A stretch of DNA of 64,000 nt from Candidatus Moraniibacteriota bacterium (lineage in GTDB: Bacteria; Patescibacteriota; Minisyncoccia; Moranbacterales; UBA1568), in NCBI GenBank assembly GCA_023261645.1, contig JAHFOO010000003.1:31951-95950 (forward strand), read 5' to 3'. Each line of letters starts with the position of its first letter. Position 1 is the stretch's first letter. The notes under the pieces were generated by a model. That model searched no databases. It was not told the origin of the DNA and worked only from the letters and a program-made list of their open reading frames with translations. A program made the translations under genes and the position numbers. Positions 1-48,486 of the stretch are shown here, piece after piece.

Positions 1-463
1 AGAAATCTTCTCGGTAAGCCAAAACGATCAATGCCCGATACAACTCCGGGACTTTTTCCAATGCTCGATCCAAATCTTCAGTTTTTTCAGCCTTTTCCAA
101 AATCTCATCCGGCAACGGTACGTTCTCATCGATTACTTCCAGTGTCATCTTCCCCTCTCCATCTTCGAAAGAAGAGAATGGGATACTCTGCTTCTTCTTG
201 AAAGAATCAAATGTCGTATTTTTGGCAATGGTGAAAATCCAAGTTTTGAAACTCCTCTTCTGATCAAAACGAGCGATATGCCTCCATACTTTGATGAATG
301 TATCCTGCACCAAGTCCTCTGCTATATTTCGATCGTGAGTAAACAGAAAAATGAAATTATAGAGTGGCGATAGATACTTCTTTACAAGTTGTTCGAAGGC
401 TCTGTCATCGCCGGAGAGAAAATCTTGCACCAATTGTTGATCATCTTGCAACATACCATTCAT
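1..463 (-). CDS. RNA polymerase ECF-type sigma-70 factor (C-terminus lies outside the window)
   Basis: Reverse-strand translation starts at the ATG at 463-461: MNGMLQDDQQLVQDFLSGDDRAFEQLVKKYLSPLYNFIFLFTHDRNIAEDLVQDTFIKVWRHIARFDQKRSFKTWIFTIAKNTTFDSFKK... This is a typical sigma-70 region 2 of ECF factors. The ORF runs off the window start and is therefore missing from the ORF track. Confidence 0.7.
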   Translation of the reverse strand, partial: MNGMLQDDQQLVQDFLSGDDRAFEQLVKKYLSPLYNFIFLFTHDRNIAEDLVQDTFIKVWRHIARFDQKRSFKTWIFTIAKNTTFDSFKKKQSIPFSSFEDGEGKMTLEVIDENVPLPDEILEKAEKTEDLDRALEKVPELYRALIVLAYREDF

Positions 464-5051: not shown

Positions 5052-5819
5052 TTACTCGGATTTTTTCGGTGGAATGGCCCACGGACAGGTGTTATCGACA
5101 GCCAATTGAGCCCATATCTCACGATACCAGAGGCGATACCCTGCACTGCTCGGATGAAGCATATCGGGTGCGAAGTATTTCTTCGGTTCTTTTTCGAAAA
5201 AATAAAATTGACTGAAAAGATCCACGCAGGCGATGTCTCTCTCTTTGGCGACACGCGTGAAGATATTTTGAACACAAAGGGCGCGCGTACCGAGAAAACG
5301 TCGTAGCATCTTCGGAAAAAACGGGGCGAAACCAATATTGCTGTACACGAGCAGGATAGTCTTCCGACCGGAAAGAATATTCGCTAGATCGAGTACCCGT
5401 ACGATATCTTTTTCCAGACGGGCATACGCGCTCAAATGCCAGACATCGTTACCGCCGATACTGATGATGACAAGATCATACCGCTTCTCTTTTTTCTTCT
5501 CAAAAATGGCAATCAAGTCACGTGTCCGAAAGCCGTTTTCTGAAAGATTCTCAATCTCTACTCTCGGCAGATCGTGAGCAAGAAGACCACTTAGAGATTC
5601 TTCCGGTCTTGTTGCTCCGGTACCATAGCTCGTGCTGTCTCCGACGATGAGGATTCTTTTCTGTGCTCCTTTTGGATGCACGGAATATGAATGACTCATC
5701 AAAGAAAGACTCTTGTTGAGAGCTATACGCCACAGCATCCTCAGTGCCGTTACAACGATGAAACTATCCAAAAGGATGAAAAATATCGAAAAAAAATCGA
5801 GTCCGTTGAAAAAATCCAT
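5052..5819 (-). CDS. SGNH/GDSL-family hydrolase, membrane anchored
   Basis: N-terminal transmembrane helix, then the GDS block ILIVGDSTSYGTGA, the IGGNDV block and DMLHPSSAGY (the DxxH catalytic block). Confidence 0.75.
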   Translation of the reverse strand: MDFFNGLDFFSIFFILLDSFIVVTALRMLWRIALNKSLSLMSHSYSVHPKGAQKRILIVGDSTSYGTGATRPEESLSGLLAHDLPRVEIENLSENGFRTRDLIAIFEKKKEKRYDLVIISIGGNDVWHLSAYARLEKDIVRVLDLANILSGRKTILLVYSNIGFAPFFPKMLRRFLGTRALCVQNIFTRVAKERDIACVDLFSQFYFFEKEPKKYFAPDMLHPSSAGYRLWYREIWAQLAVDNTCPWAIPPKKSE

Positions 5820-5824
5820 ATTTT

Positions 5825-6628
5825 TTATTGATGCTTCAGCAATTCATCATAGCGCTCTGTAGAGAGTACTTCACGAAGTTTAGTATACCACAAGCCATAA
5901 CCCTCTCCGTTCGGATGAATCCCATCGGAAGCGAAAAGAAGATGTGGGGATTGCCTGAATGGGTCCGCTGCTTTCTCTTCAAAAAGATCGACGTAACTGA
6001 CTTCTGCAGATTCTGTCGCTTCCAGGAATAGTGCACGAATCTTTCTTGTCCTTTCTTCGAAATAACAGCTCAAAGGAAAACGAAAAAAAGGAATCGTGCC
6101 AAGATTGGCAGATGAAGATACCACAACCCTCCCAGCGCTTATTTTTTTTGCACTGGCGAAAATATAATCGAGTCTCCTCGAAAAATGCGTCAATGGTCTG
6201 AGTGTAAGCGTGTCTATCCCACCGATCTGGATGATGACAAGATCAGCCTTCATATCCGGATGATCTCTCAGAAAAACGGCTAGTTCTCTCGTCCCCATAC
6301 CTACCTTGGCATAGTTCCTGATGGAAATGAGAGGAAATTCCGCTCCCAATCGCCCAGCCAAAGAGAATTCCGGACGTTCCGATCCCGTGCCGGCTACCGT
6401 GCTGTCACCAAGAATAATGACTGTTTTTCCACTGCGCTCTCTCCTATACGGATGAGTCGTATAGCCTAAATACTTGGCAATACTGCCAAAAAGAATCAAA
6501 GAAAAAATCTCAAAAAGAGCATAACAAAAGATGATAAGTCCCAACCATTGAAGAAAAAGGAGAATGAGCATAAACAAGTGTTCCCCACATTGTAAAGAAT
6601 ATCGCTCCAAAAAGCAACTTACTCCCAA
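5825..6628 (-). CDS. SGNH/GDSL-family hydrolase, membrane anchored (tandem paralogue)
   Basis: VIILGDSTVAGTGS, IQIGGIDT and DGIHPNGEGY. Same architecture as the adjacent gene. Confidence 0.75.
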   Translation of the reverse strand: MGVSCFLERYSLQCGEHLFMLILLFLQWLGLIIFCYALFEIFSLILFGSIAKYLGYTTHPYRRERSGKTVIILGDSTVAGTGSERPEFSLAGRLGAEFPLISIRNYAKVGMGTRELAVFLRDHPDMKADLVIIQIGGIDTLTLRPLTHFSRRLDYIFASAKKISAGRVVVSSSANLGTIPFFRFPLSCYFEERTRKIRALFLEATESAEVSYVDLFEEKAADPFRQSPHLLFASDGIHPNGEGYGLWYTKLREVLSTERYDELLKHQ

Positions 6629-15515: not shown

Positions 15516-18500
15516 CTAATTGCCACGAAGTCTCGACATCCATCCGAAATTATTGAGAAAGGTTCTCGTCACCACTTCAGCCGCGCTGGATGTAGCTTGT
15601 TCTACCGGAACAGTAACTGCATCAGAGACCGTTACATTTTCTGCCTCATCATACGCTTCTATCTGATAACTATACACATCCCCCGCCTCCGCCGGAATAG
15701 TAATGAGATGGTAGGTATTGTAAGTATCGTCGCTCGTCGACTGCTCAAATGATTTTGTTACGATTCCCTTCGCATATGCCACGTGTATACGTGATGCTTC
15801 GTCGGTTTCGATTCTGATATACACATTGGCCTGAGCATTTGTGCCTCGTCCAGACACTCGTCCCATTGCCTTGTTTGAAATAATTCTTGGTGGGCGAGAA
15901 TCAGTACGTGTCGTAACCTTTTGTTCGAAGGGTCTCGCCTGAATATGATACTGGTCATTTCCGGTCACGGTAACCATATATTCTACCGCAGGATCAAGAC
16001 TGGAAATCTCCGCCGTATGTTCTGTCGTCAAATCTTCTGTCAAATATGTGTGGTTGTCTCCCGATCCTGATTTATAGTATATCAGAGTCGATGTTGGTAC
16101 ATTGGTCTTGTACGTGATAGTCACTGTCGGTAAATCGACATTTTCTTTGTTTTCTATAATCACCTCAGACACTACCGGTTCTTCCGGCGTACTGAATGAA
16201 TACTGGTCCGAAGAGAACGTGTTCAAATCACCATCGATACAGTCTATCTGTGCCGAATAATCAGAAGTAGGCTGAAGATTGTCTATCTTCTGGATATGAC
16301 TCGATCCCCCCGATGTTTCCTCGATACTATACGAACCATATTTCAGAGTACAGGTAGCGCTCACGTTTGTCTTCCAATTGACATAGGCTGTGTACAATTG
16401 AATGTCAGTAATCGTCAAATCAGAAATGACCGGCGGTGGCAACGTCGTGAATGTATCCACTGTTGACGTACCGATATTGCCATCCGGATCGATATACTTC
16501 ACGCTATAAAAATATTTCGTCCCAGCATCCAGCCCTTTCACCAAGACTCCGTGTGTCGTCACTGAATCCACCTGTCCAGTTGTCTCACCAAGCGAGATGG
16601 ACTTTCCATATTCGATAAATGAACTCGCCACTCTATCGGTCGCCCACTCGAAAGTCGCTTGAAAAGATTGTGTCGTATAGCTCGGCGTACCGACTAATTT
16701 TGGCGCGGTCGTGTATTTTCCTGTCGGAATAATCGAGACTGTCGAAGAAGCGGCGGAATAATTATTCGTCTTGTCTTTGGACTTCACATAATAATAATAC
16801 AGCTTACTTTCCAAAGTAGTATCACCGGATGCAAGGAGGATCTCGCCGGAATCGACATAAGCACTTCCTGTCGTCTTGGCAATTTCGGTGAATGTAACGT
16901 TATCTTCGGAACGATAAATGACAAACCCATCAAAGTTGGCAACATTGATGCTATCCGGACGAGCCCACTTCACTGCGACACCATATTTGGCGTTTTCTCT
17001 GTCTGAAGTATCAAAAACCTGTACATTACCCGGAATAGGCGGGTTACTAGTATCAGCCGTAAATGTTACTGTAGCATAGTTCCCCCATTCGATATTTCCC
17101 GATTCGTCCCCAGCCACCACGAAGAAGAGGTTGTCACCCTTCTGAGTCGCAAAGGCGCTCGGGCCAGCCGCTTTGGCCGTCGTCGCCACTGAGTTGTTTG
17201 CCGTTGGCAACATATTGATCGAATAATGATAAATAATTTTCGTCGGATCCCCTGCGTACGAAGCTGGTGTATCCCAGGAAAAAGTAAATGAGTTATTCGT
17301 AGAAGAAGATGGTGTCGCAGTCAAACTCTGTGGTGGTGTCGGCGCGCTGGCGCTGTAATAGTATTCCTGCGGAAGTGGCGGAGAAACATTACCAGCACCA
17401 TCCACCACTCGAATATAAAATTTATTCTTACCAGATTGATAGGCACCAACGATATGATTCACATTCGGAATAGTCAGTGCCACTTGGTTGACATCAGGGA
17501 TATCTACCCAGACATTTGGAACATCACCATCAGTACGATACTGTAGTTTCGCCACACCGGAAAACAGATCAGCTGAATCAGCTGACCAGGTGAAAGCAAA
17601 ATTATCCGTCGCCGTATAGCCGGTCGGGAGAACAGAAACAACAGACGGGTTGGTCGGAGCGATATTATCAAACTTGTAGATGAACGCACTGTACGAAGTA
17701 GATGTGATCATTCCCGCATTATCTTTTGTCATTATCTTCAAATAGTATGTCTGTCCTGCTGACAAACTGCTCGCCGTATAATTATTCGCTGTTTGAAAAT
17801 TCACCGGGTCGGCATTTATGTCTATACCGAAGTACACATAGTAGCCAGCAACTCCTGATCCGCCTACACCATCAGTCGCGCCATCGGCGACATCGACAGC
17901 TGGCCACTCAAAGTACGGCGCCGTATGATTGTACCAGGTATCCGTCGTCATACTCGTTACCTTTGTTCCGTCAGTATACGCACTGATGGCACTTGGATTG
18001 GTCGGTTCCGTGATGTCCTGATAGTAACTCACTGCATAATCAGTGATGAGTGGTGAGAAAATCTGATCCGATGATGAAAGATTCGCTCGTACTTGAAAAA
18101 AACCATTCGGTAGAGAGTTTATTTTGAATGTATGTGTTGTCCCCAATACCTGTTCATTGGAAACATTTGTCCAATTCTCCCACGTCGCTCCATCAGCAGA
18201 AGTTCTCGTTTCAAATGTGACAAAAGTATTGTTTGGTAACGTGTAGTTGACTGAAAAATTCGCCCACTTGTACACAGAAACGAGATTGATAGTCTCCGAA
18301 GTATAAACCCCCGTCTTCTGAAAACCAGTGCCGTTATCACTCGAACTCACCACGTAACTATAAAGTCCGTCTGGATAGGAGTTGGTGCCGTTTCCGGCGA
18401 TGACCCAGTTCCGATTGCTTGCGTGCTTCTGAAAACCACCAGTATTCACTTGCGCAGGAATATCCGTCACAGCACTCCAAGTACCTGAAAGACCATCGGC

Positions 18501-21500
18501 GATCCGATACCGATAATAATTCGAGGTGTTGAAACCACGAGTCATATAGATATATCCGTCTCCTCCATCGGCAATACTGCCACCGGTACTGATGGTGGCC
18601 GGTAGTATCGGCATCGCCGCCCAAGTACCCGCCCCGATATCATAGCGGTAATCCGTATTGTTTCCTCCACGAACCGAATAGATATACCCTCCATTATATA
18701 TCATCTCTCCACCGGTCGTAACAGTGGGTGCTCCGACTGTAGAAAGTGCCGACCATCGAGAGCCATCACTCCCATTCAGATCATAGCGCCACCAAGTCGC
18801 CTGACCCACTCCACGTGTGAGGTAGATATATCGTAACCCATCATAGGTCATACTCGATCCGGTGCCGACCTGAATCGGAGGGCGATCTGTCGTCACCTCG
18901 CTCCAGGTATTGGTCGGGATATCGTATTTATAGAAATAATTACTGGCCCCGCTCCGTGAAGTGCGAATTGTTCCGGGAGAATAGTAGATCTCACTATGAT
19001 TCCCGACATACACAAGACTTGATCCATCATACGCTCCTACTGGCAATCGAGCCATTTCCGTTGTTGTTCCTGTTCTTATATTGTACCGGACAAAAACATT
19101 ATCATAACTGCCACGAATCATATACATATTTTCATTGTCATCAGTGACCGCAAATGTTCCGGCACCGAATGGGAAGTATGTCGTCGCATTGATTACTGCC
19201 GGCCCGAACAGTCCGCGGGTTGGTACCTGCCAGGAACTCTCAGCGATACTGTAACGATAAAAATTCGTCGTGTTCGCACCACGCAAGGCATAAATATAAC
19301 CGTGATACACCACCTGGGAAGCGCCGTGATCAAATGTTCCTGGAGTATCTGGCAATTGAGACCATTCATTGATGGCGACATTGTAACGGTAATAATTGTT
19401 TTTCCAATTACCACGAGTCATATAGACGCTGTTCGATGTCGCATCAAAGGCCAGGCTTCCTCCCGTATACACACCCGTCGGCGCCGAAGCCAGTACCGTC
19501 CAGGTATTGGCGACTTCGCCATGCGCTACATCCGTCGCGATGGAATATTTTGCAAAGTACGGGTAATAATTTCCTTGAACGACATAAACATTATTGCGCC
19601 CATCATATACGCTGTCAGAGCCATAATTGACCGTCTGCCCATCCGTGGCATTCGGATTGCCGAATTGCGCATTGACTTTGGCACTCCAAGAATCATTGAT
19701 CGTATCATACCGATAAAAGGCGTCATCACTCCCCGGCAAACCATAGATATACTGCGATCCATCATAGGAGATCGACCCGCCAGCGTAGAAATTCTTCGGC
19801 GCACTCGAAACAGTGGACCAAATATCAAGTGCGATATCATACTTCCAAAATGTCGGCAAATTCCCTCCTTGTGTGGCATAGAGAAACCCATTCGGACCCC
19901 TCTCGATCGATCCTCCATATCCGACCACCCCCGGTGTCACGGCTAGAGCAGTCCAGGTGTCTGTCGCCAGAGCATAGCGATAAAATCCAGTGGTATTACC
20001 ACCCCGAAGTGCAAAAATATAGTCACTTCCATCATAGGTCACTTGAACACTGTCACTACCATAATACATCAAAGCAGGAGCATTGGTTATACGCGACTGA
20101 TTCCAGAATCCGGTACCATCACTGGCACTGAGCCTAAGAGCATCGGTAACATCAGTCGCTGAAACATCTGAGAGTGTCCCCGCCGAAAAATCGGCCTGGC
20201 TCGTTTTCGTTGCAACCAATGCCGGCGCCACTCCGTTATACACATAGGTAAAAGCCGAATAAGTTGTGGCACTCACATTACCATTATTGTCTTTGGTCTT
20301 GATCCGGAGATAATAGGAAGTGGCAGTAAGAGCAGTATTTGCTTCATACGCAGTACTCGTTTGATACGATCCATCCACTGCCGGATCAGCACCGGCATTG
20401 GTACCAAAATAGACGTAGTACCCTTCTACTCCCGCCTCCGGACTACTCGCGCCAGAAAAGGAAAAGTACGGGTGTTCATATGAGTAGGATGATCCGGAAG
20501 TAAGCGTCACACCTCCGGTGTTTTTCGAGTAAGCGTTGACCGCAGTCGGATTGATGGGCAGTGTATCGGAGTTATTATAGGTTATGGTGTAATCAGAAGC
20601 CGTCGGTGTATTCGCGCCATCCGTCGTAGAAAGGGTGATCCGCACCTGGATATAGCGTTCTGGAGGCGAAGCAATGGCTGTACCACTCACTGCCTCCCAA
20701 TCCGACCACGTCTCGGCATCAGTACTCGTCCGAGTCTCATAGACGATGCTCGTACCGGCAGGTGTCGTACTGTTTGCGACAAACGACACCCAGTTCGATG
20801 CTTGTGATACATCAAGAGGTTCGCTCACATAACTCCCTGTACTCACGAAATTATTTGTTCCAGCCGTGAAGCTCCACATATCTGTCGTTGCCTGACCGGT
20901 CAGAGCATAGAAAGAATTGCCTCCAGCGTATTCGATGTTCGCACCATTGTACGGTCCACGTCCATAGAGGTATTTTTGATTTGATGGCAACATCCGCCAC
21001 GTATCAGTCGTAATGGTATACTCCCAGGTTTCGTCCTTATAGTACCCGGCGAGCGCATAAATCTTACCATTCGCAAATGTCAGACTAGTACCATAGTACT
21101 GGGCGAAAGGTGTTGAGGAAAGAGTTGACCACGTATTACTCCCCGTATTGAAACGAAGAAATGCCGTTTCGCCATCACCAAAGGTCGCGTACAGATTCGT
21201 ACCATCGGAAACCATTTTGGCACCGATATTCGCATTGTAAGTAACACCGCTCACCACCGAAGTAGCCAGCGTCGTCCAAGCCAACGTTGTGGAATTCAAA
21301 CTGCTGTACAAATTAGGAGTCCCATTCCCTCTCAAAACATACACTTTGTTATCCGAAGCATTATACACAGCACTTCCACCGTTTGATACTGTTCCCGGCA
21401 ATACCGTCATTACTGCCCAGGTATTCGTGGAAATTGTATATCGGTAGAAAGTTGTTGTTCCATTGCCGAGAGGATAATAAATGTAATTACCCACCAATGT

Positions 21501-23213
21501 CCCTGTCGTATCGGTCGGCGGAACTGTCGGCAGATTCGCCAGAGCCGTCCAGGTATTGGTGGCGGTCTCATATCGATAGAATCCCGCCGTACCGCCCCGT
21601 ATCGCATAAACATATGCTCCAGCCCCGGTTACTCCGTTCCAGAGAAGATCACTTCCTGTCCCCATAGTGATGGTGTTGTTCATCACCTGTTGTGGTCCCA
21701 CCCAATCCCCCGTCGTCCCAAGAGCTGGATTAAATTTCCACAGATCATAAGTGCCATTGCCACGAAGCATATAGATCAGATTGTCATTGGCATTGAACGC
21801 GAGAGAGGCATAGTTGGCCGCGGCTGGTGTCGTCGCCAGTACTGTCCAGCTATTGCCAGTGATATCATAGCGCAAGAATCCAGTCTGACCCGCAGACCGC
21901 GCATAATAGATATATCCATTGGCATAGGCTCCCTTCTCATCACCGTTGAAATTCTGACCGGTCGTGATGTCGGTGCGGGCACTCCACGTGTTGCTGGCGA
22001 TATTATAGCGATAGAATGTCAAAGTATTCGCACCACGTGGCGTATAGAAATTCCCATCATACCCATAGACCAGATTGGCACCGGCCGATACCGTGGCCGA
22101 TACCGGTGCGAGACTCTGCCACTCGCCAAGTGAAACATTGTAACGCCAGAAATCCGTACTGCTATTCCCTCGCATTACATAGGGGTTGGTCCCGTCAAAT
22201 CCGATACTCCCACCCGTATAGATGGTGTCGAGAAGATCAGGGAGGGCCGTCCAGGTATCGGTCGCCACGTCATAAGAATAAAACTTTTTCGAATACCCTC
22301 CAAAAATCACATAAATGAGGCCATTGGCGCTATCACTGACCATGTCTGCCCCGTAATACACCGGGAATGGCAGATCAGACAGCTCCGTCCATTCATTGAG
22401 CACCGAATCATACTTCCAAAATGCCTTATCCGACAATCCGCGCATGACATAGAGATTATTGCCCACGAAGATCGAGCTTGATCCCGCGCTCACCGTATCG
22501 GGAGGTACCGCCCAGGTGCGTGCCGACCAACTCCCATCCGATGCCAATTGTAACGCGTCAGTAGCACTATCGAGAGAAATATCTGCCGTCGTTCCCATTC
22601 CCCATTCTGTTTCAGTGGTGATAGTACGTGCAAATGGAGCCCCTGATACACTGACTCCACCTATATATACCGCCACAACGACCACTCCCACCACAATAGC
22701 ACTTCGCCACGTTATAGAATGAGCTATTTGCATGCACCGACGAATTTTCTTGTACCACCACCCGAAAAAGAGTGCTCCATAATAACGCCTGAAGTATGCT
22801 TTGCCATAACTTCTCTTCTGGGCAGGAGTATATTTATTCAAGAATTCACTCAGGCTCTCTTCTTCAACTATCAGACGTTTTTTCGGCATTTCCTCTGAGA
22901 GAAATCTTTTTTTGAAATTGATTTGGTATTTTTGTGCAAAAAGAGAAAAGCGACACCGTAATAGAGTAAAGAGACCAGATGGTTTTTTTACCTTTATTTC
23001 TGTCATTTTTTTCGAAATATCTTTTGTCACTGACTTTTCCGCCCAACAGTGCAAACGAGAAGATGGCTCTTTTTGTATGTCAACCTTCTTCCGTAACACC
23101 TTTCTTACAGACGTTGCCTTCCGTGATGCTTTTACCTCCCGGCCAGTAGCAGAAAACAGGTTCTCTGATAACGAGAGTCTTCTGATGTTTGTTTTTCTTT
23201 TTACGATAGCCAT
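15516..23213 (-). CDS. Giant (2565 aa) membrane-anchored surface protein with about 45-50 tandem Kelch-like beta-propeller repeats and C-terminal Fn3/Ig-like modules
   Basis: A basic N-terminal tail and one transmembrane helix (SAIVVGVVVVAVYIGGVSV) precede many roughly 50-aa repeats of the form Y[VI]Y..RG......F.RY[DN]...N.W. The C-terminal third is made of beta-sandwich-like T/S-rich modules. Start codon is the ATG at 23213. An in-frame ATG at 22889 is an alternative. Confidence 0.8.
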   Translation of the reverse strand: MAIVKRKTNIRRLSLSENLFSATGREVKASRKATSVRKVLRKKVDIQKEPSSRLHCWAEKSVTKDISKKMTEIKVKKPSGLFTLLRCRFSLFAQKYQINFKKRFLSEEMPKKRLIVEEESLSEFLNKYTPAQKRSYGKAYFRRYYGALFFGWWYKKIRRCMQIAHSITWRSAIVVGVVVVAVYIGGVSVSGAPFARTITTETEWGMGTTADISLDSATDALQLASDGSWSARTWAVPPDTVSAGSSSIFVGNNLYVMRGLSDKAFWKYDSVLNEWTELSDLPFPVYYGADMVSDSANGLIYVIFGGYSKKFYSYDVATDTWTALPDLLDTIYTGGSIGFDGTNPYVMRGNSSTDFWRYNVSLGEWQSLAPVSATVSAGANLVYGYDGNFYTPRGANTLTFYRYNIASNTWSARTDITTGQNFNGDEKGAYANGYIYYARSAGQTGFLRYDITGNSWTVLATTPAAANYASLAFNANDNLIYMLRGNGTYDLWKFNPALGTTGDWVGPQQVMNNTITMGTGSDLLWNGVTGAGAYVYAIRGGTAGFYRYETATNTWTALANLPTVPPTDTTGTLVGNYIYYPLGNGTTTFYRYTISTNTWAVMTVLPGTVSNGGSAVYNASDNKVYVLRGNGTPNLYSSLNSTTLAWTTLATSVVSGVTYNANIGAKMVSDGTNLYATFGDGETAFLRFNTGSNTWSTLSSTPFAQYYGTSLTFANGKIYALAGYYKDETWEYTITTDTWRMLPSNQKYLYGRGPYNGANIEYAGGNSFYALTGQATTDMWSFTAGTNNFVSTGSYVSEPLDVSQASNWVSFVANSTTPAGTSIVYETRTSTDAETWSDWEAVSGTAIASPPERYIQVRITLSTTDGANTPTASDYTITYNNSDTLPINPTAVNAYSKNTGGVTLTSGSSYSYEHPYFSFSGASSPEAGVEGYYVYFGTNAGADPAVDGSYQTSTAYEANTALTATSYYLRIKTKDNNGNVSATTYSAFTYVYNGVAPALVATKTSQADFSAGTLSDVSATDVTDALRLSASDGTGFWNQSRITNAPALMYYGSDSVQVTYDGSDYIFALRGGNTTGFYRYALATDTWTALAVTPGVVGYGGSIERGPNGFLYATQGGNLPTFWKYDIALDIWSTVSSAPKNFYAGGSISYDGSQYIYGLPGSDDAFYRYDTINDSWSAKVNAQFGNPNATDGQTVNYGSDSVYDGRNNVYVVQGNYYPYFAKYSIATDVAHGEVANTWTVLASAPTGVYTGGSLAFDATSNSVYMTRGNWKNNYYRYNVAINEWSQLPDTPGTFDHGASQVVYHGYIYALRGANTTNFYRYSIAESSWQVPTRGLFGPAVINATTYFPFGAGTFAVTDDNENMYMIRGSYDNVFVRYNIRTGTTTEMARLPVGAYDGSSLVYVGNHSEIYYSPGTIRTSRSGASNYFYKYDIPTNTWSEVTTDRPPIQVGTGSSMTYDGLRYIYLTRGVGQATWWRYDLNGSDGSRWSALSTVGAPTVTTGGEMIYNGGYIYSVRGGNNTDYRYDIGAGTWAAMPILPATISTGGSIADGGDGYIYMTRGFNTSNYYRYRIADGLSGTWSAVTDIPAQVNTGGFQKHASNRNWVIAGNGTNSYPDGLYSYVVSSSDNGTGFQKTGVYTSETINLVSVYKWANFSVNYTLPNNTFVTFETRTSADGATWENWTNVSNEQVLGTTHTFKINSLPNGFFQVRANLSSSDQIFSPLITDYAVSYYQDITEPTNPSAISAYTDGTKVTSMTTDTWYNHTAPYFEWPAVDVADGATDGVGGSGVAGYYVYFGIDINADPVNFQTANNYTASSLSAGQTYYLKIMTKDNAGMITSTSYSAFIYKFDNIAPTNPSVVSVLPTGYTATDNFAFTWSADSADLFSGVAKLQYRTDGDVPNVWVDIPDVNQVALTIPNVNHIVGAYQSGKNKFYIRVVDGAGNVSPPLPQEYYYSASAPTPPQSLTATPSSSTNNSFTFSWDTPASYAGDPTKIIYHYSINMLPTANNSVATTAKAAGPSAFATQKGDNLFFVVAGDESGNIEWGNYATVTFTADTSNPPIPGNVQVFDTSDRENAKYGVAVKWARPDSINVANFDGFVIYRSEDNVTFTEIAKTTGSAYVDSGEILLASGDTTLESKLYYYYVKSKDKTNNYSAASSTVSIIPTGKYTTAPKLVGTPSYTTQSFQATFEWATDRVASSFIEYGKSISLGETTGQVDSVTTHGVLVKGLDAGTKYFYSVKYIDPDGNIGTSTVDTFTTLPPPVISDLTITDIQLYTAYVNWKTNVSATCTLKYGSYSIEETSGGSSHIQKIDNLQPTSDYSAQIDCIDGDLNTFSSDQYSFSTPEEPVVSEVIIENKENVDLPTVTITYKTNVPTSTLIYYKSGSGDNHTYLTEDLTTEHTAEISSLDPAVEYMVTVTGNDQYHIQARPFEQKVTTRTDSRPPRIISNKAMGRVSGRGTNAQANVYIRIETDEASRIHVAYAKGIVTKSFEQSTSDDTYNTYHLITIPAEAGDVYSYQIEAYDEAENVTVSDAVTVPVEQATSSAAEVVTRTFLNNFGWMSRLRGN

Positions 23214-43459: not shown

Positions 43460-43674
43460 ACAAAGACATTTATAGGTTAATAATTGAGTCTCTCAGGTTC
43501 AAATCCGGTTGCTGGCCTGGAATGTAAAACCTATATAAGAGGAAAGAAAAATCGCCACTTTCCGTGACGATTCTCTCTTTCTCTCTGGACTTTCCCCACG
43601 GATAGGAACCGGTCACTTGAGAAATACTGATGTTGGCTCTGGCGGCAGGATTCGAACCTGCGACCAAGTGATTA

Positions 43675-44222
43675 CATTTCCCTCTTTGTTTCCAAAAAGA
43701 ATGGACTATATCATCTCCATCGCACGAAGCATTAGGAGTGAGGGGCTTCCCCTTCTATTCATCAGGGTACTCTCTCGCGAGATAGTCTCTGAACCTTCCT
43801 ACTCCTCTAGTAGGCTTGGCTGCTGATTACCATAATCGTGCTGAACAATCGTAGGCTTCCAGCAATTCACCTCATTCTTCACTTCTCGATTTCTCGAGAA
43901 GGCTGCGTAATTTGGAATGTTCTTCTCTGTGACAATTCGCACATATCAGAATACACTTATCTATTTCCTTCTGAACCCTTTCCCAGCTTCGGGTGAGTCC
44001 ATCTTGAGAGATCCCGAAATCCTTTCCGCCGAGAGCGTGATGGAATTCGAGTGCATCTTGACACTGCTTGTAACCACACAAAGAACATTCTCCGCCTTTA
44101 TACATAATCGCTTTTTGACGAATAGCCTTTCGGCGTTTCGCAACAGCGCGTTTTATGTACTCTCGGCGATCAGCATAGGATCTTTTTTCTGGCATATAGT
44201 GTCATATACCATAAATGTTTTC
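43675..44222 (-). ncRNA. Group I self-splicing intron (IC3-like) inserted between anticodon positions 35/36 of tRNA-Asn
   Basis: Minus-strand sequence after the HNH ORF stop contains the four group I core elements. P-like is AATTGCTGGAAG. Q-like is AATCAGCAGCC. R is the exact GTTCAGAGACTA. S-like is GATATAGTCC. The intron starts with G after an exon U and ends in G. Confidence 0.7.
43872..44195 (-). CDS. HNH homing endonuclease encoded within the group I intron
   Basis: CSLCGYKQCQDALEFHHALGGKD...ICANCHREEH is the classic HNH motif with two Cys pairs and HH. The ORF begins 27 nt into the intron and ends immediately before the P element. Confidence 0.8.
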   Translation of the reverse strand: MPEKRSYADRREYIKRAVAKRRKAIRQKAIMYKGGECSLCGYKQCQDALEFHHALGGKDFGISQDGLTRSWERVQKEIDKCILICANCHREEHSKLRSLLEKSRSEE

Positions 44223-44361
44223 ACAGTCACCTGCTCTACCGCTGAGCTACGCCAGAACGTGTTGCCTCTTATAGGCAATGTAACTATTCTAAAGCAAAAA
44301 AAAGAAAAAGGCAACTATACTTGATAATTGCCTCAAAAAAACATTTTATACCGCTGGTATA

Positions 44362-44868
44362 TCAACCGAAAGTGGATTCCAGTCGAGGATGGGAATAATA
44401 AGACTCTATTTTACGTATAGGTCTCCCTAAATCATCTCTTTCGAACAGCAGATGCAATTTTGGACTACCCAAAGCAGCATTATTGCTTACGACGCTATCG
44501 TCGCCGACAAAAAATCCTATATGCCGGTGACCGGGTCCACGTCTACGGAGCTTTTTCCCCCAGACAACAATACATCCGGGACGCGGAGAAGGTATTTTCT
44601 TCTAACCGGACATTTCAAGGTCACGGATTGTTTCATTTACTGTCGTATGCACCCTGCCTTTCGTCAGTCTGAAAAGTGTCAATATCGAAGACACAAAGTA
44701 AGCACAAGCGAGGTCTCCATTCTCGATGACGTCCCTTGGTCCGATGACCGTTTGCACATACAGATGTCTGTATTGATTCGAGCCGACGCTTCCCTGAATC
44801 ATCGCAAAATACGTCTTGAAAAAGGCGAGAGGGTATCCCTCTTCTTTATGAATTGTTTTCATCGTCAT
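44362..44868 (-). pseudogene. CHAP/NlpC-P60-like papain-fold peptidase gene interrupted by an in-frame TAG
   Basis: N-terminal segment MTMKTIHKEEGYPLAFF...GDLACAYFVSSIL...EMSG ends at the TAG at 44602-44604. The same frame continues KKIPSPRPGCIVVWGKK...GPGHRHIGFFVGDDSVVSNNAAL... to the TGA at 44362-44364, giving a Cys...His arrangement. RBS AGGAGAAA precedes the ATG at 44868. Confidence 0.45.
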
Positions 44869-45083: not shown

Positions 45084-46502
45084 CTAATAGTCTCTAAGTT
45101 TCCGAATATCCGCGTGCTCACGGATCTTTTCGAGAGCCTTGGCTTCAATCTGGCGGATACGTTCACGCGTCACACCGAATTCCTGCCCCACCTCTTCGAG
45201 AGTATGTGTCACGCCGTCTTCCAATCCGAAACGGATACGGAGAATTTTCTGTTCTCGCGGAGTGAGTTCGTCCAAAATATCAGAAATATGCGATTTCAAA
45301 AGTTTCCGTGAAGCAGATTGATTTGGCATCACTGTTTCGGTATCTTCGATGAAGTCCCCGAGCACACTATCGTCTTCATTATCACCGACGGATGTTTCGA
45401 GAGAAACAGTTTCTTGTGAAATTTTCTGGATGTGGCGAATCTTCTCGACTTCGATGTTCATCTCCGCGGCGATTTCCTCTGCCAATGGTTCGCGTCCGAG
45501 TTCCTGTACCAAACGACGGGTCACCTGGGCGTATTTGTTGATCGTTTCCACCATATGCACCGGGATACGGATCGTACGCGATTGATCAGCAAGTGCTCGC
45601 GTGATAGCCTGACGGATCCACCACGTAGCATAGGTAGAAAACTTATAGCCTTTGCGATAATCAAATTTTTCGACAGCTCGGAACAGTCCTATATTGCCTT
45701 CTTGGATGAGGTCAAGAAGCGAGAGATTGTGCGATCGACCGACATACTTCTTGGCAATCGACACGACCAATCGCAAGTTGGCTTCCGTCAGACGCTGTTT
45801 CGCAGGGATATCACCTTTTTCGATCAGTTTGGCGAGACGCACTTCTTCTTCTCCGTTGAGCAGAGCCACGCGTCCGATTTCTTTCAGATACATCTGCACC
45901 AGATCGGACGTATTCTCTTCACCAAGATCCATCATCTTGTCTTTAGCTTTCGGCGCCGCTTTACTTTTTTCTTTACCCTTGTCCTTTCCTTTGCCTTTCT
46001 CTTTTTCTTTCTTACCGAAATTCGCCCCTTCCTTCTCTATATCGAGTTTCAACATTTCTTCCGAACCGATGACACGGATTCCAGATGTCTCGAGTTTTTC
46101 ATACAGACTTTCCAGATGATCCAAATCCTGTTCCACATCGGGCAAGATATGAATGATCTCATCTTCCGTCACGAAACCGCGTTGCTTCCCGCGCGCGAGC
46201 AATTCCGTCACAGCATCTTGCTGTTCTTCGATGCGTTCCCTGCTCTGAGAAGCTCTTTTCTTCACCGGCTTCACATATTTTTTATGAGCGACTTTCGATT
46301 TTTTGGAAACGATCTTTGTTTTTTTTGATGCCGTTTTTTTCGTCTGCTTTTTCTTCACGACAACCTGTTTCTTTTTCTTGCCGATCGGATGAATCTTTTT
46401 CTGCACTTTTTTATGAAGCACCTTTTTGGCAGACTTCTTCATAGGTTTCTTTCCCTTATTCAAGGGTTTTTTTGCACCTTTCTTCATAATCTTTTTTGTC
46501 AT
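45084..46502 (-). CDS. rpoD: RNA polymerase primary sigma factor RpoD (sigma-70) with lysine-rich N-terminal extension
   Basis: Regions 2-4 are conserved ([60 protein letters not shown]). The N-terminal 90 aa or so are about 45% Lys ([21 protein letters not shown]...). Confidence 0.9.
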
Positions 46503-46590: not shown

Positions 46591-48486
46591 TTAGGATTTG
46601 TCCAAAGAAATTTCCGTGAATTGAGCCAAAAGCTTCTTCTCCAATTCATTATCATTTTTCTCTCGTGCTTCTCTCAATGCTCGTTCCAGTGCGATGAGTT
46701 TCTCACGTTTGGTAATCTCCCTTTTCAAATCTTCGAAATAACTCTTGGCTATTTCGAGCATCTTCCCTGTCCGGTCTTCTTCCGGCACATCGATGAAATC
46801 CGGTAATTCCAAAATATGAAATATCAGTCTCGTCGCCTCATTCTTCAGCACAGAATCCTCTATGAGGGTCAGTGGATCCCTTATTCCTGCCTGAACCAGA
46901 AAGAAGTAGAGGGGGTGTTTTTCGAGAAATGATTTGGTCTCATCATCGAGAAGAAGATTGAAAAAGGTTTCACGGACGACGCTATCCGCATACATAAATC
47001 CTACCAATTCCTCCCGTAACAATTCAGAACGTTTTCCAAATGGAATCGTACCCTTGAGAGGCTCTCCTCTTCCTGTCTCAAATGGAGTATACCTCTCCCG
47101 GCGTTCCCGCGACTGGATGACTGTATTTACTACACCCAGCACGAGTTTTTCTTCCATCTGTATCGCTTCCGAGAGTTCTTTGACCCAAAAAGCCCGTTCG
47201 ATGGGATTCTTCACAAACACCAGAAGCTCGGCGTATTCTTCCGCTATTTTCCGTTTCCCATCAGGCGTATTCTGATCATATTGTTTCAAACTGGTTTGGA
47301 GGAAATACCGTAGTGCCGGAATCGAAGCCTTGACCGCCTCTCTTAGTCCTTCCGGGTTCTCTTTGCCCATATCCGAAGCGTCTTTGCCGGATGTAAGGGC
47401 GACGACTGAGACAATCATCTCTTTCGAGAGTGCCGATTCCGCGCTTTTCCTCGCCGCCTTTTGTCCTGCTCCATCCATATCGAAAAACAATTTCACTTCA
47501 CTACCATAGCGTTTCATCGTCGTCAACTGCTCATCAGTGAGAGCGGTACCGGAAACGGCCACTGTATTTTTGATACCTGCTTGATGCATCGCGATGACGT
47601 CCATATTCCCCTCCACAATCACCGTTATGCCTTCCTGCTTCATCGCCATTTTTGCCTGAAACAAGCCATACAAAGCTCGGCTTTTGTGGTAGACTGGAGT
47701 CTCGGGCGTATTGATATATTTCGCCTGTGTCTCATCGCCACCCGGTGCCACCCGTGCCGAATACCCGATCACCCGACCGAGGATATCAAAGATAGGAAAC
47801 ATAATGCGATCACGGAAACGATCATAGTGAGTAGAATCTTGAGTCTTGAATCTTGAATCTTGGTTTCCTTCGTTGGATTTTTTTATAACGAGTCCGGCGC
47901 TCTCCATTTCTTGCACAGAAAAACCTCTACTCGTGAGAAATTCCAACAAATGTCGCCAACCATCCGGCGCATAGCCGAGACGAAATGTTGCGATGCTCTC
48001 CTGTGAGAGACCGCGTTCGGAAAGATATGTCCCTATTTTTTTCTGTCCGACTTCTCCTGCCAATTGTTTTTCGAAAAATTTTGTAGCCAGCTCGAGAAGT
48101 TCATATACACGGTCTTTGGTTTCTTTGTTTTTCTCTTCTCCTTTGTACTGTGGCAATTCCACTCCGGCACGTTCTGCCAGCATCTTGAGAACTTCACGAA
48201 ATTCGAGGCCCTCCATTTCCATCACGAACGCGAATACGTCTCCGCCCTTGCCACAACCGAAGCAGTGCCACATATTCTTCTCTTCGTTCACCATAAAAGA
48301 TGGTGTCCGTTCCTGATGGAATGGGCAACACGCTTTGTAATGCACGCCGGACTTGTCCAGATGAACATACGATCCGATAAGGTCGACGATGTTCAGTCGT
48401 GCTTTGATTTCGTCAATGGTTCCGTCTGACATAGTATTTTTTATCTCACTGACTGAATAATAGCTCTCAATAGGGCTAAAAAGCAA
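46591..48486 (-). CDS. dnaG: DNA primase DnaG
   Basis: Zinc ribbon CPFHQERTPSFMVNEEKNMWHCFGCGKGGD and a TOPRIM domain. Lies immediately upstream of rpoD, the classic macromolecular-synthesis operon order. Confidence 0.9.
   Translation of the reverse strand: MLFSPIESYYSVSEIKNTMSDGTIDEIKARLNIVDLIGSYVHLDKSGVHYKACCPFHQERTPSFMVNEEKNMWHCFGCGKGGDVFAFVMEMEGLEFREVLKMLAERAGVELPQYKGEEKNKETKDRVYELLELATKFFEKQLAGEVGQKKIGTYLSERGLSQESIATFRLGYAPDGWRHLLEFLTSRGFSVQEMESAGLVIKKSNEGNQDSRFKTQDSTHYDRFRDRIMFPIFDILGRVIGYSARVAPGGDETQAKYINTPETPVYHKSRALYGLFQAKMAMKQEGITVIVEGNMDVIAMHQAGIKNTVAVSGTALTDEQLTTMKRYGSEVKLFFDMDGAGQKAARKSAESALSKEMIVSVVALTSGKDASDMGKENPEGLREAVKASIPALRYFLQTSLKQYDQNTPDGKRKIAEEYAELLVFVKNPIERAFWVKELSEAIQMEEKLVLGVVNTVIQSRERRERYTPFETGRGEPLKGTIPFGKRSELLREELVGFMYADSVVRETFFNLLLDDETKSFLEKHPLYFFLVQAGIRDPLTLIEDSVLKNEATRLIFHILELPDFIDVPEEDRTGKMLEIAKSYFEDLKREITKREKLIALERALREAREKNDNELEKKLLAQFTEISLDKS

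Follow-up and report, generated by a model that had tools for sequence, protein, structure and literature searches.

What does this locus encode, if the usual search for tRNA genes sees nothing there? With its default settings, ARAGORN found no tRNA in the whole window, i.e. the 64-kb stretch of Candidatus Moraniibacteriota DNA analysed here. The initial annotation had proposed that the minus strand holds, at positions 43634-44256, a tRNA-Asn(GUU) gene split between anticodon nucleotides 35 and 36. When introns were allowed, ARAGORN called tRNA-Asn(gtt) at c[43634,44256] and placed an intron of 548 nt behind position 35; the exon and intron coordinates first proposed turned out to be right to the base. 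Our results indicate that the anticodon of this tRNA-Asn(GUU) gene is very probably split by a self-splicing group I intron of subgroup IA, which carries an HNH homing-endonuclease gene in the loop of its P1 helix (Table 1).

Table 1. Features of the split tRNA-Asn locus, in positions of the window.
Feature	Position	Strand	Remarks
Promoter-like TTGCCT-17-TAGAAT	44286..44314	-	about 30 nt upstream of the tRNA 5' end; consensus match only, 9/12
tRNA-Asn exon 1	44223..44256	-	34 nt, tRNA nt 1-35; ARAGORN with introns allowed
Group I intron	43675..44222	-	548 nt, GAAAAC...GAAAUG; subgroup IA-like; omegaG at 43675
tRNA-Asn exon 2	43634..43674	-	41 nt, U36 to encoded CCA (UAAUCAC...GCCA); ARAGORN and L087 allele
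Expected spliced junction of tRNA-Asn			GGTGACTGT/TAATCACTT
P1, 5' strand	44222..44226	-	exon C32 U33 G34 U35 and intron G1
Terminal pairing (candidate), 5' strand	44213..44218	-	intron nt 5-10, ACAUUU
HNH endonuclease gene	43872..44195	-	107 aa and stop, intact, in P1 loop
Intron_gpI catalytic core	43682..43926	-	Rfam match and covariation
Candidate P10 partner AUUA	43908..43911	-	4 bp with 3' exon UAAU 43674..43671
Internal guide sequence CGCAG (P1, 3' strand)	43903..43907	-	G43906.U35 wobble
P2 hairpin CUUCUCGA-GAAA-UCGAGAAG	43882..43901	-	compensatory changes in 7/8 pairs
P3	43874-43870/43743-43739	-	
P4	43864-43859/43826-43821	-	
P5	43855-43854/43831-43830	-	
P6a	43814-43809/43803-43798	-	
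P7	43787-43783/43708-43704	-	
P7.1	43782-43779/43774-43771	-	
P7.2	43767-43764/43753-43750	-	
P8	43738-43735/43718-43715	-	
P9	43699-43693/43688-43682	-	
Terminal pairing (candidate), 3' strand	43674..43679	-	AAAUG/U: last five intron nt including omegaG, and U36
Terminator-like hairpin, then T run	43547..43575	-	about 60 nt past the tRNA 3' end; consensus match only

The joined exons form a canonical cloverleaf of 75 nt, with anticodon GUU and an encoded CCA, when ARAGORN is run on either the spliced or the genomic sequence, which bears out the identity and the 35/36 split proposed at the outset. Exon 1 ends in GACUGU, and its last nucleotide, U35, is the U-1 of the 5' splice site. The best full-length matches of the spliced sequence in E. 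coli are annotated as tRNA-Asn (82% identity over 97% of the query). To compare the locus with its counterparts we fetched contigs encoding close relatives of RpoD. One of them, hereafter L087 (GCA_028699965.1, Candidatus Moranbacteria), encodes an RpoD 88% identical to that of the window and has, in the syntenic place (L087:6053-6125), an uninterrupted tRNA-Asn(GTT), to which the Rfam tRNA model RF00005 gives 75.2 bits. This allele is identical to the joined exons at 72 of 73 positions, including the whole anticodon arm, so that the junction in the window is not a chance reconstruction; the only difference within exon 1 is one base of the D-loop. No second tRNA-Asn was seen by ARAGORN in the 64 kb with introns allowed.

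The genes dnaG (48486..46591) and rpoD (46502..45084) lie upstream on the same strand, and the order dnaG-rpoD-tRNA-Asn is common to MAGs of Moranbacteria. The named relatives of RpoD, at 74-88% identity, bear the labels Moranbacteria or Moraniibacteriota, Minisyncoccota and Patescibacteria group, plus one labelled just 'bacterium'. The host can thus be placed in Patescibacteria, within the Moranbacteria lineage, and the locus is a genuine tRNA-Asn gene of this lineage with an intron inside its anticodon. The gene is probably a transcription unit of its own, just downstream of dnaG-rpoD. The neighbouring gene at 44862..44362 has a premature TGA in this assembly.

The intron itself has the core of a group I ribozyme. 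As the initial annotation had recommended, we searched with the Rfam model Intron_gpI (RF00028), which aligns over its full length (model positions 1-253) with 43926..43682 of the minus strand at 72.1 bits, above the gathering score of 50 (E = 2.4e-16), and which is the sole Rfam match in the window. The P, Q, R and S elements initially pointed out in the intron correspond to P4 (UGCUGG/UCAGCA) and P7 (GACUA/UAGUC), and the rule of an exon U and an intron-terminal G holds, with U-1 and omegaG (G 43675) both in place. We analysed covariation in an alignment of mini-introns from which the ORF had been deleted, comprising the window and 28 homologues, with the structure derived from the window. 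In these 29 sequences, standard pairs fill 89.6% of the cells, versus 36-44% after a displacement of the 3' partners by 1-3 columns. Both sides have changed in 42 of the 63 pairs, and none of 500 shuffles attains any of the observed measures. Helices P2, P3, P4, P5, P6a, P7.1, P7.2, P8 and P9 covary, GACUA/UAGUC of P7 is invariant across the set, and the P3/P7 pseudoknot is kept. The two small hairpins P7.1 (43782-43771) and P7.2 (43767-43750), where all four pairs of each show compensatory changes, lie between the 5' strand of P7 and the 3' strand of P3. This arrangement is the hallmark of subgroup IA, and on such architectural grounds the intron is IA-like.

The P1 helix and its guide had escaped identification by eye in the initial annotation. 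A P1 does exist: the guide, GCAG (43906..43903), lies on the 3' side of the ORF, whose last 35 nt run across the guide sequence, P2 and J2/3, and whose stop codon UGA (43874..43872) provides the first three bases of the 5' strand of P3. All 29 sequences have the pairing CUGU/GCAG unchanged, and its neighbour, the pair between intron nucleotide 1 and the position before the guide, covaries (GC in 23 sequences, AU in three, GU in one, unpaired in two). In the short relatives that lack the ORF (L029, L036 and L076), GCAG is found 8-12 nt past the splice site, where it closes a simple P1 hairpin, which indicates that in the window the ORF has been inserted into the P1 loop. The same four bases are translated as ...LRSL in the clade of the window, as ...TQLP in most other relatives and as ...AQSAA in a third group; since GCAG is thus read in all three frames across subclades, the bases are conserved as RNA and not as protein. 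The 'P1' aligned by Rfam, a local hairpin within the 3' end of the ORF, was rejected because its register fails to pair with the real exon. As for P10, the pairing UAAU/AUUA is formed in 56% of cases across the family, a value equal to that of shuffles, and its conservation is unsupported.

The 107-aa protein encoded in the intron had been assigned to the HNH nucleases from its motifs, an assignment upheld by PHROG families, phage HNH relatives and invariant residues. It has at least 277 homologues. Nine residues are invariant in 46 sequences (C37, C40, H52, H53, C85, N87, C88, H89 and H93), and they comprise the HH...N...H catalytic residues and the Cys4 zinc ligands. The Pfam profile PF01844 gives 17.9 bits on the window protein, under the cut-off of 21.4, and matches 35 of the 46 family members at E <= 0.01 (best E = 7.5e-6). 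Pfam alone is therefore insufficient to establish the HNH domain of the window protein, and PHROGs, tblastn against phages and a family profile were needed. The protein matches phrog_2255 (HNH endonuclease) with E = 3.3e-26, and eight other PHROG families among the ten matches are annotated as HNH endonucleases. Annotated HNH endonucleases of Bacillus phages are 62-66% identical to it over residues 32-89 (tblastn, E = 3e-17). With the family profile as query, matches were obtained to McrA and, at E = 1.2e-5, to the HNH (En) domain of 6me0_C, a group II intron maturase. The AlphaFold model has a pLDDT of 80.6, and HNH nucleases make up 28 of its first 30 Foldseek matches, all of them non-significant (E >= 0.27), T4 endonuclease VII (probability 0.82) included.

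Compared with its homologues in L002-L007, the ORF has a pN of 0.14-0.18 and a pS of 0.74-0.89, and pN values so far under pS imply that it is maintained by purifying selection. No clear Shine-Dalgarno sequence was found upstream of the ORF. Of 65 relatives, 22 have a motif resembling an extended -10 element, TGnTAnnnT, ahead of the ORF; the window has an imperfect version of it (TGGTATATG), and we do not claim an internal promoter. At the nucleotide level, AATTGTCAC of the CANCH codons resembles the pattern of the group I P element.

Does the intron move? Its presence varies among close relatives of the host. It is absent from L087, and occupies the site in L083-85, with RpoD proteins 93% identical to that of the window, and in L086, with an RpoD at 88%. 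The intron of L083-85, which come from independent samples, is 96.4% identical to that of the window, and the L086 version 84.6%. The alternation of presence and absence at the same site, as read from these alleles, is what one expects of a mobile intron, and L087 would then represent an empty homing site. A more specific scenario of horizontal replacement, suggested by L006 (RpoD 95% identical, intron ORF only about 70%), was dropped because the RpoD match covers just the conserved C-terminal part.

On a larger scale, a scan of one genome per species retrieved more than 600 matching stretches, at least 568 of which encode relatives of the window HNH protein. Among the best 80 of these HNH-relative loci, 71 consist of a tRNA-Asn split at 35/36 (CUGU / ... 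G / UAA), and the other nine are mostly ARAGORN miscalls or truncated contigs. The hosts are mostly labelled Patescibacteria, with some MAGs labelled Nitrospira, Omnitrophota, Scalinduaceae and Acidobacteriota; five introns from MAGs with labels outside Patescibacteria were submitted to Rfam and all five pass its threshold. Free-standing HNH relatives occur beside the ORF-less tRNA-Asn introns of L029, L036 and L076.

The initial annotation had regarded both the insertion site and the association of this site with an endonuclease as new, and neither is. The catalogue of Williams (bioRxiv 2020, 10.1101/2020.01.27.920355), which by its own account brings the known classes of tRNA group I introns from 4 to 21, already has the 35/36 site of tRNA-Asn, as the class 'Asn.4Ug' credited to it by Nakagawa, Amikura, Omae & Suzuki (mSystems 2026, PMC13011429; preprint 10.1101/2025.07.03.662931). 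The latter authors, according to their text, analysed 95 complete genomes of Patescibacteria and described 15 introns in tRNA-Asn(GUU) and three in tRNA-Asp at 35/36, four of the tRNA-Asn introns encoding HNH endonucleases of PF01844. They place 25 of 28 introns at 35/36, and nearly all tRNA introns of Patescibacteria, in subgroup IA, and report precise self-splicing in vitro at 35/36 of a Patescibacteria tRNA-Asn, with an omegaG-to-C change as control. Our locus shares with 'Asn.4Ug', as catalogued in 10.1101/2020.01.27.920355, a bacterial tRNA-Asn, an insertion after the fourth nucleotide of the anticodon loop, U-1 and omegaG, but the text of that catalogue holds no structure, endonuclease genes or experiments with which to compare it. 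The likeness to the introns described in PMC13011429 extends to host phylum, tRNA, position 35/36, U-1, omegaG, IA architecture, a length of more than 500 nt and an HNH protein of PF01844 type; the differences are that our copy, from a MAG, is not known to be among their 95 complete genomes, and that another tRNA-Asn intron served for their assay in vitro. The locus thus adds a member to a published class, in a published host phylum, and is not a discovery. It is a clean example of this recently described class, complete with the empty site of a near relative, and raises no new question by itself. The failures of ARAGORN and tRNAscan and the Thr(UGU) miscalls mentioned in PMC13011429 recur here, the miscalls at related loci. 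Since standard tRNA finders miss the gene, tRNA-Asn would seem to be missing from the genome, whose completeness would then be underestimated, a point also raised in that paper.

These elements suggest how the gene could work. In the precursor, CUGU of the exon and G1 of the intron would pair with CGCAG, about 310 nt downstream, to form a P1 in which U35 and G43906 make the wobble pair. An external guanosine would attack after U35, the terminal G (43675) would then take its place in the G site, and the exons would be joined into a normal tRNA-Asn. We infer self-splicing of the window copy by analogy with its relatives. The endonuclease activity of the window protein and its target are likewise predicted from other intron-encoded HNH enzymes, on which the proposed role in homing is modelled: the enzyme may cut or nick an intronless tRNA-Asn gene near the anticodon, and repair would copy the intron in.

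Other readings of the locus have to be weighed against this one. For 36 of the 80 related loci, ARAGORN places the intron at 33/34 and reads Thr(tgt) or Thr(cgt), and the gene of the window could be parsed in the same way, as a tRNA-Thr(UGU) whose intron lies two bases further upstream, because the intron also ends in UG and the shift would likewise give a loop of 7 nt. We rejected this parsing, which has next to no chance of being correct. With the shift, the last intron base would be A and omegaG would be lost, all 71 loci show the arrangement CUGU / ... G / UAA at 35/36 alone, the uninterrupted allele of L087 reads GTT within an otherwise near-identical body (72/73), and the guide GCAG pairs with CUGU and not with the shifted exon end. 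In addition, the Thr(UGU) miscall is documented, and the spliced products were sequenced, by Nakagawa et al. (PMC13011429). Even with tRNA-Asn split at 35/36 as the correct reading, the intron might be a dead relic within a tRNA pseudogene, or its splicing might depend on proteins and not be autocatalytic. The weak P10, the need to form P1 across a 310-nt loop, and the premature TGA in the gene at 44862..44362, a sign of some decay or error at the locus, could be seen in this light. Yet, all core helices are intact and fit the covariation pattern, conservation extends to P7, U-1, omegaG and the guide sequence, the 64 kb show no other tRNA-Asn, and copies as close as 96.4% (L083-85) come from independent samples. 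Given also that relatives self-splice in vitro (PMC13011429), we consider a relic or a protein-dependent intron very unlikely.

One may also ask whether the HNH protein still serves homing. It could have been domesticated, as a splicing helper (maturase) or in some other role for the host, with the intron now inherited vertically. The strong purifying selection on the ORF, the very wide retention of the HNH-intron element in Patescibacteria and the interlocking of the ORF with the guide sequence, P2 and P3 would all fit such a role. But the catalytic residues and the zinc ligands of the HNH domain are all invariant, and strict vertical inheritance is at odds with the site being empty in L087 and occupied in L083-86. 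Relatives of the protein in MAGs labelled as several other phyla also argue against domestication, and free-standing copies beside ORF-less introns (L029, L036, L076) are the pattern of a mobile gene. To our knowledge, no HNH intron protein has maturase activity. Domestication is thus improbable, if less so than a dead or protein-dependent intron, and a self-splicing intron with an active homing endonuclease remains our preferred reading.

The combination of features at this locus recalls several classical systems. Most tRNA introns outside Patescibacteria belong to subgroup IC. The introns of cyanobacterial and plastid tRNA-Leu(UAA) and of Azoarcus tRNA-Ile are self-splicing, as ours probably is, and like ours they lie in the anticodon loop and build P1 from nucleotides of this loop, but they are IC3 introns of about 200-250 nt at other loop positions and have no ORF. 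Phage group I introns with the HNH endonucleases I-HmuI, I-HmuII and I-TwoI resemble it in associating an IA-type intron with an HNH-family enzyme, and the window protein matches phage HNH families. Unlike the intron of the window, they interrupt protein-coding genes, and their enzymes are larger, have extra DNA-binding modules and nick DNA, whereas the window protein is a minimal one of 107 aa with two CxxC pairs. A further parallel is the group I intron in the tRNA-fMet gene of Synechocystis, which encodes I-Ssp6803I, a homing endonuclease that targets the intronless tRNA gene. Here too an intron in the anticodon loop of a bacterial tRNA has its own endonuclease gene, but the enzyme is of the PD-(D/E)XK and not of the HNH type, and the site (33/34), the tRNA and the phylum are different. 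The text of PMC13011429 lists PF11645 in tRNA-fMet at 33/34, and gives 34/35 as the position of the tRNA-Leu intron.

Compared with the text of PMC13011429, our analysis goes slightly further on four points: the overlap of the ORF in the P1 loop with the ribozyme, the abundance in draft genomes, the free-standing HNH relatives and a pairing of the intron termini. The text and legends of that paper mention neither an ORF in the P1 loop, nor an overlap with the guide, nor terminal pairing. In draft genomes, with at least 568 stretches, the form that carries the HNH gene is much more frequent than the four cases reported from complete genomes (PMC13011429).

The terminal pairing, between the 5' end of the intron and its 3' terminus, is a minor new point and appears to covary. 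In 33 of 68 introns with an ORF, the first 12 nucleotides contain the reverse complement of the last three, omegaG included, a statistic inflated by shared ancestry. Permutations yield 13.6 +/- 2.8 such introns and 0 of 5000 reach 33, a contrast subject to the same inflation. The complement was found in none of four ORF-less relatives. When the alignment register is kept fixed, no more than 58.6% of the helix is paired across the 29 sequences, and we therefore take the pairing as a lead rather than a result. The terminal helix might tie the splice sites together across the 300-nt loop of the ORF and open before ligation. With the overlap between ORF and ribozyme, it might then constitute an undescribed switch between translation and splicing, or a substitute for the weak P10, an idea that we consider rather unlikely. 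If such a switch exists, translation of the endonuclease and splicing of the tRNA would be mutually exclusive.

The two ends of the intron may pair with each other. In the window, a hexamer near the 5' end is complementary to the last five intron nucleotides together with U36, and omegaG, the intron-terminal G, would on this complementarity be base-paired if the ACAUUU/AAAUG|U helix forms. Among the loci considered here (the window and L002-L081, fetched as relatives of the HNH gene), the complement of the last three intron nucleotides occurs within the first 12 in 33 of the 68 ORF-bearing relatives, against 13.6 +/- 2.8 under permutation, a statistic that is inflated by shared ancestry. The same comparison of the first 12 with the last three nucleotides gave no such complementarity in the four ORF-less relatives.

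In 22 of 65 relatives an extended -10-like motif, TGnTAnnnT, lies near the start of the intron, its end 4-9 nt 5' of the start codon of the HNH gene. It suggests an internal promoter from which a leaderless or near-leaderless HNH mRNA may be made. The window has an imperfect version of the motif.

Three relatives of the HNH gene are free-standing and adjoin a tRNA-Asn gene, directly upstream of it in L029 and L076 and directly downstream in L036. The tRNA-Asn genes at these loci hold group I introns of 209-251 nt without an ORF, a layout resembling the arrangements of free-standing endonuclease and intron known from phages.

HNH-bearing tRNA-Asn introns at position 35/36 were also found in metagenome-assembled genomes labelled as other than Patescibacteria: as Nitrospira, Nitrospiraceae or Nitrospiria (L037, L048, L057, L060, L079), Omnitrophota (L021, L069, L073, L077), Scalinduaceae (L058) and Acidobacteriota (L068, L072). 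These assignments are the labels of the records, and several of the "TPA_asm uncultured ..." ones look unreliable. A survey of complete genomes (Nakagawa et al., mSystems 2026, PMC13011429) places endonuclease-bearing subgroup IA introns at 35/36 in Patescibacteria only.

Features of the window and of related loci (L-numbers)
Feature	Location	Strand	Remark
Candidate terminal pairing, 5' strand ACAUUU	window 44213..44218	minus	complementary to intron 3' end
Candidate terminal pairing, 3' strand AAAUG|U	window 43674..43679	minus	complementarity; last five intron nt + U36
Extended -10-like motif, e.g. TGCTATAAT	intron nt about 10-27		upstream of ORF start; examples L030, L038, L042, L074, L081
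Imperfect extended -10-like motif TGGTATATG	window 44209..44201	minus	
Free-standing HNH-relative gene	L029:4001-4306		tRNA-Asn with ORF-less group I intron
Free-standing HNH-relative gene	L076:4001-4327		tRNA-Asn with ORF-less group I intron
Free-standing HNH-relative gene	L036:4001-4288		tRNA-Asn with ORF-less group I intron
135-aa ORF	window 43917..44324	plus	antisense to HNH gene and exon 1
Conserved hypothetical gene, 166 aa	window 44362..44862	minus	between rpoD and tRNA
2565-aa ORF	window 15516..23213	minus	

The antisense ORF is annotated as a gene on L082, a public contig near-identical to the window. This call is evidently a gene-calling artefact, and annotation of that contig can easily miss the tRNA and the true HNH ORF. 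The 2565-aa ORF had no NCBIfam match at E <= 1e-5. Codon 87 of the 166-aa gene is TGG (Trp) in L001 and L082, near-identical contigs of other samples, and reads as an in-frame TGA in the window; this stop is either a nonsense mutation at the strain level or an error of the assembly. In L087, a Candidatus Moranbacteria contig with an intronless tRNA-Asn, an ORF for a 76-aa GIY-YIG domain (5813-6043) ends 10 nt upstream of the tRNA gene.
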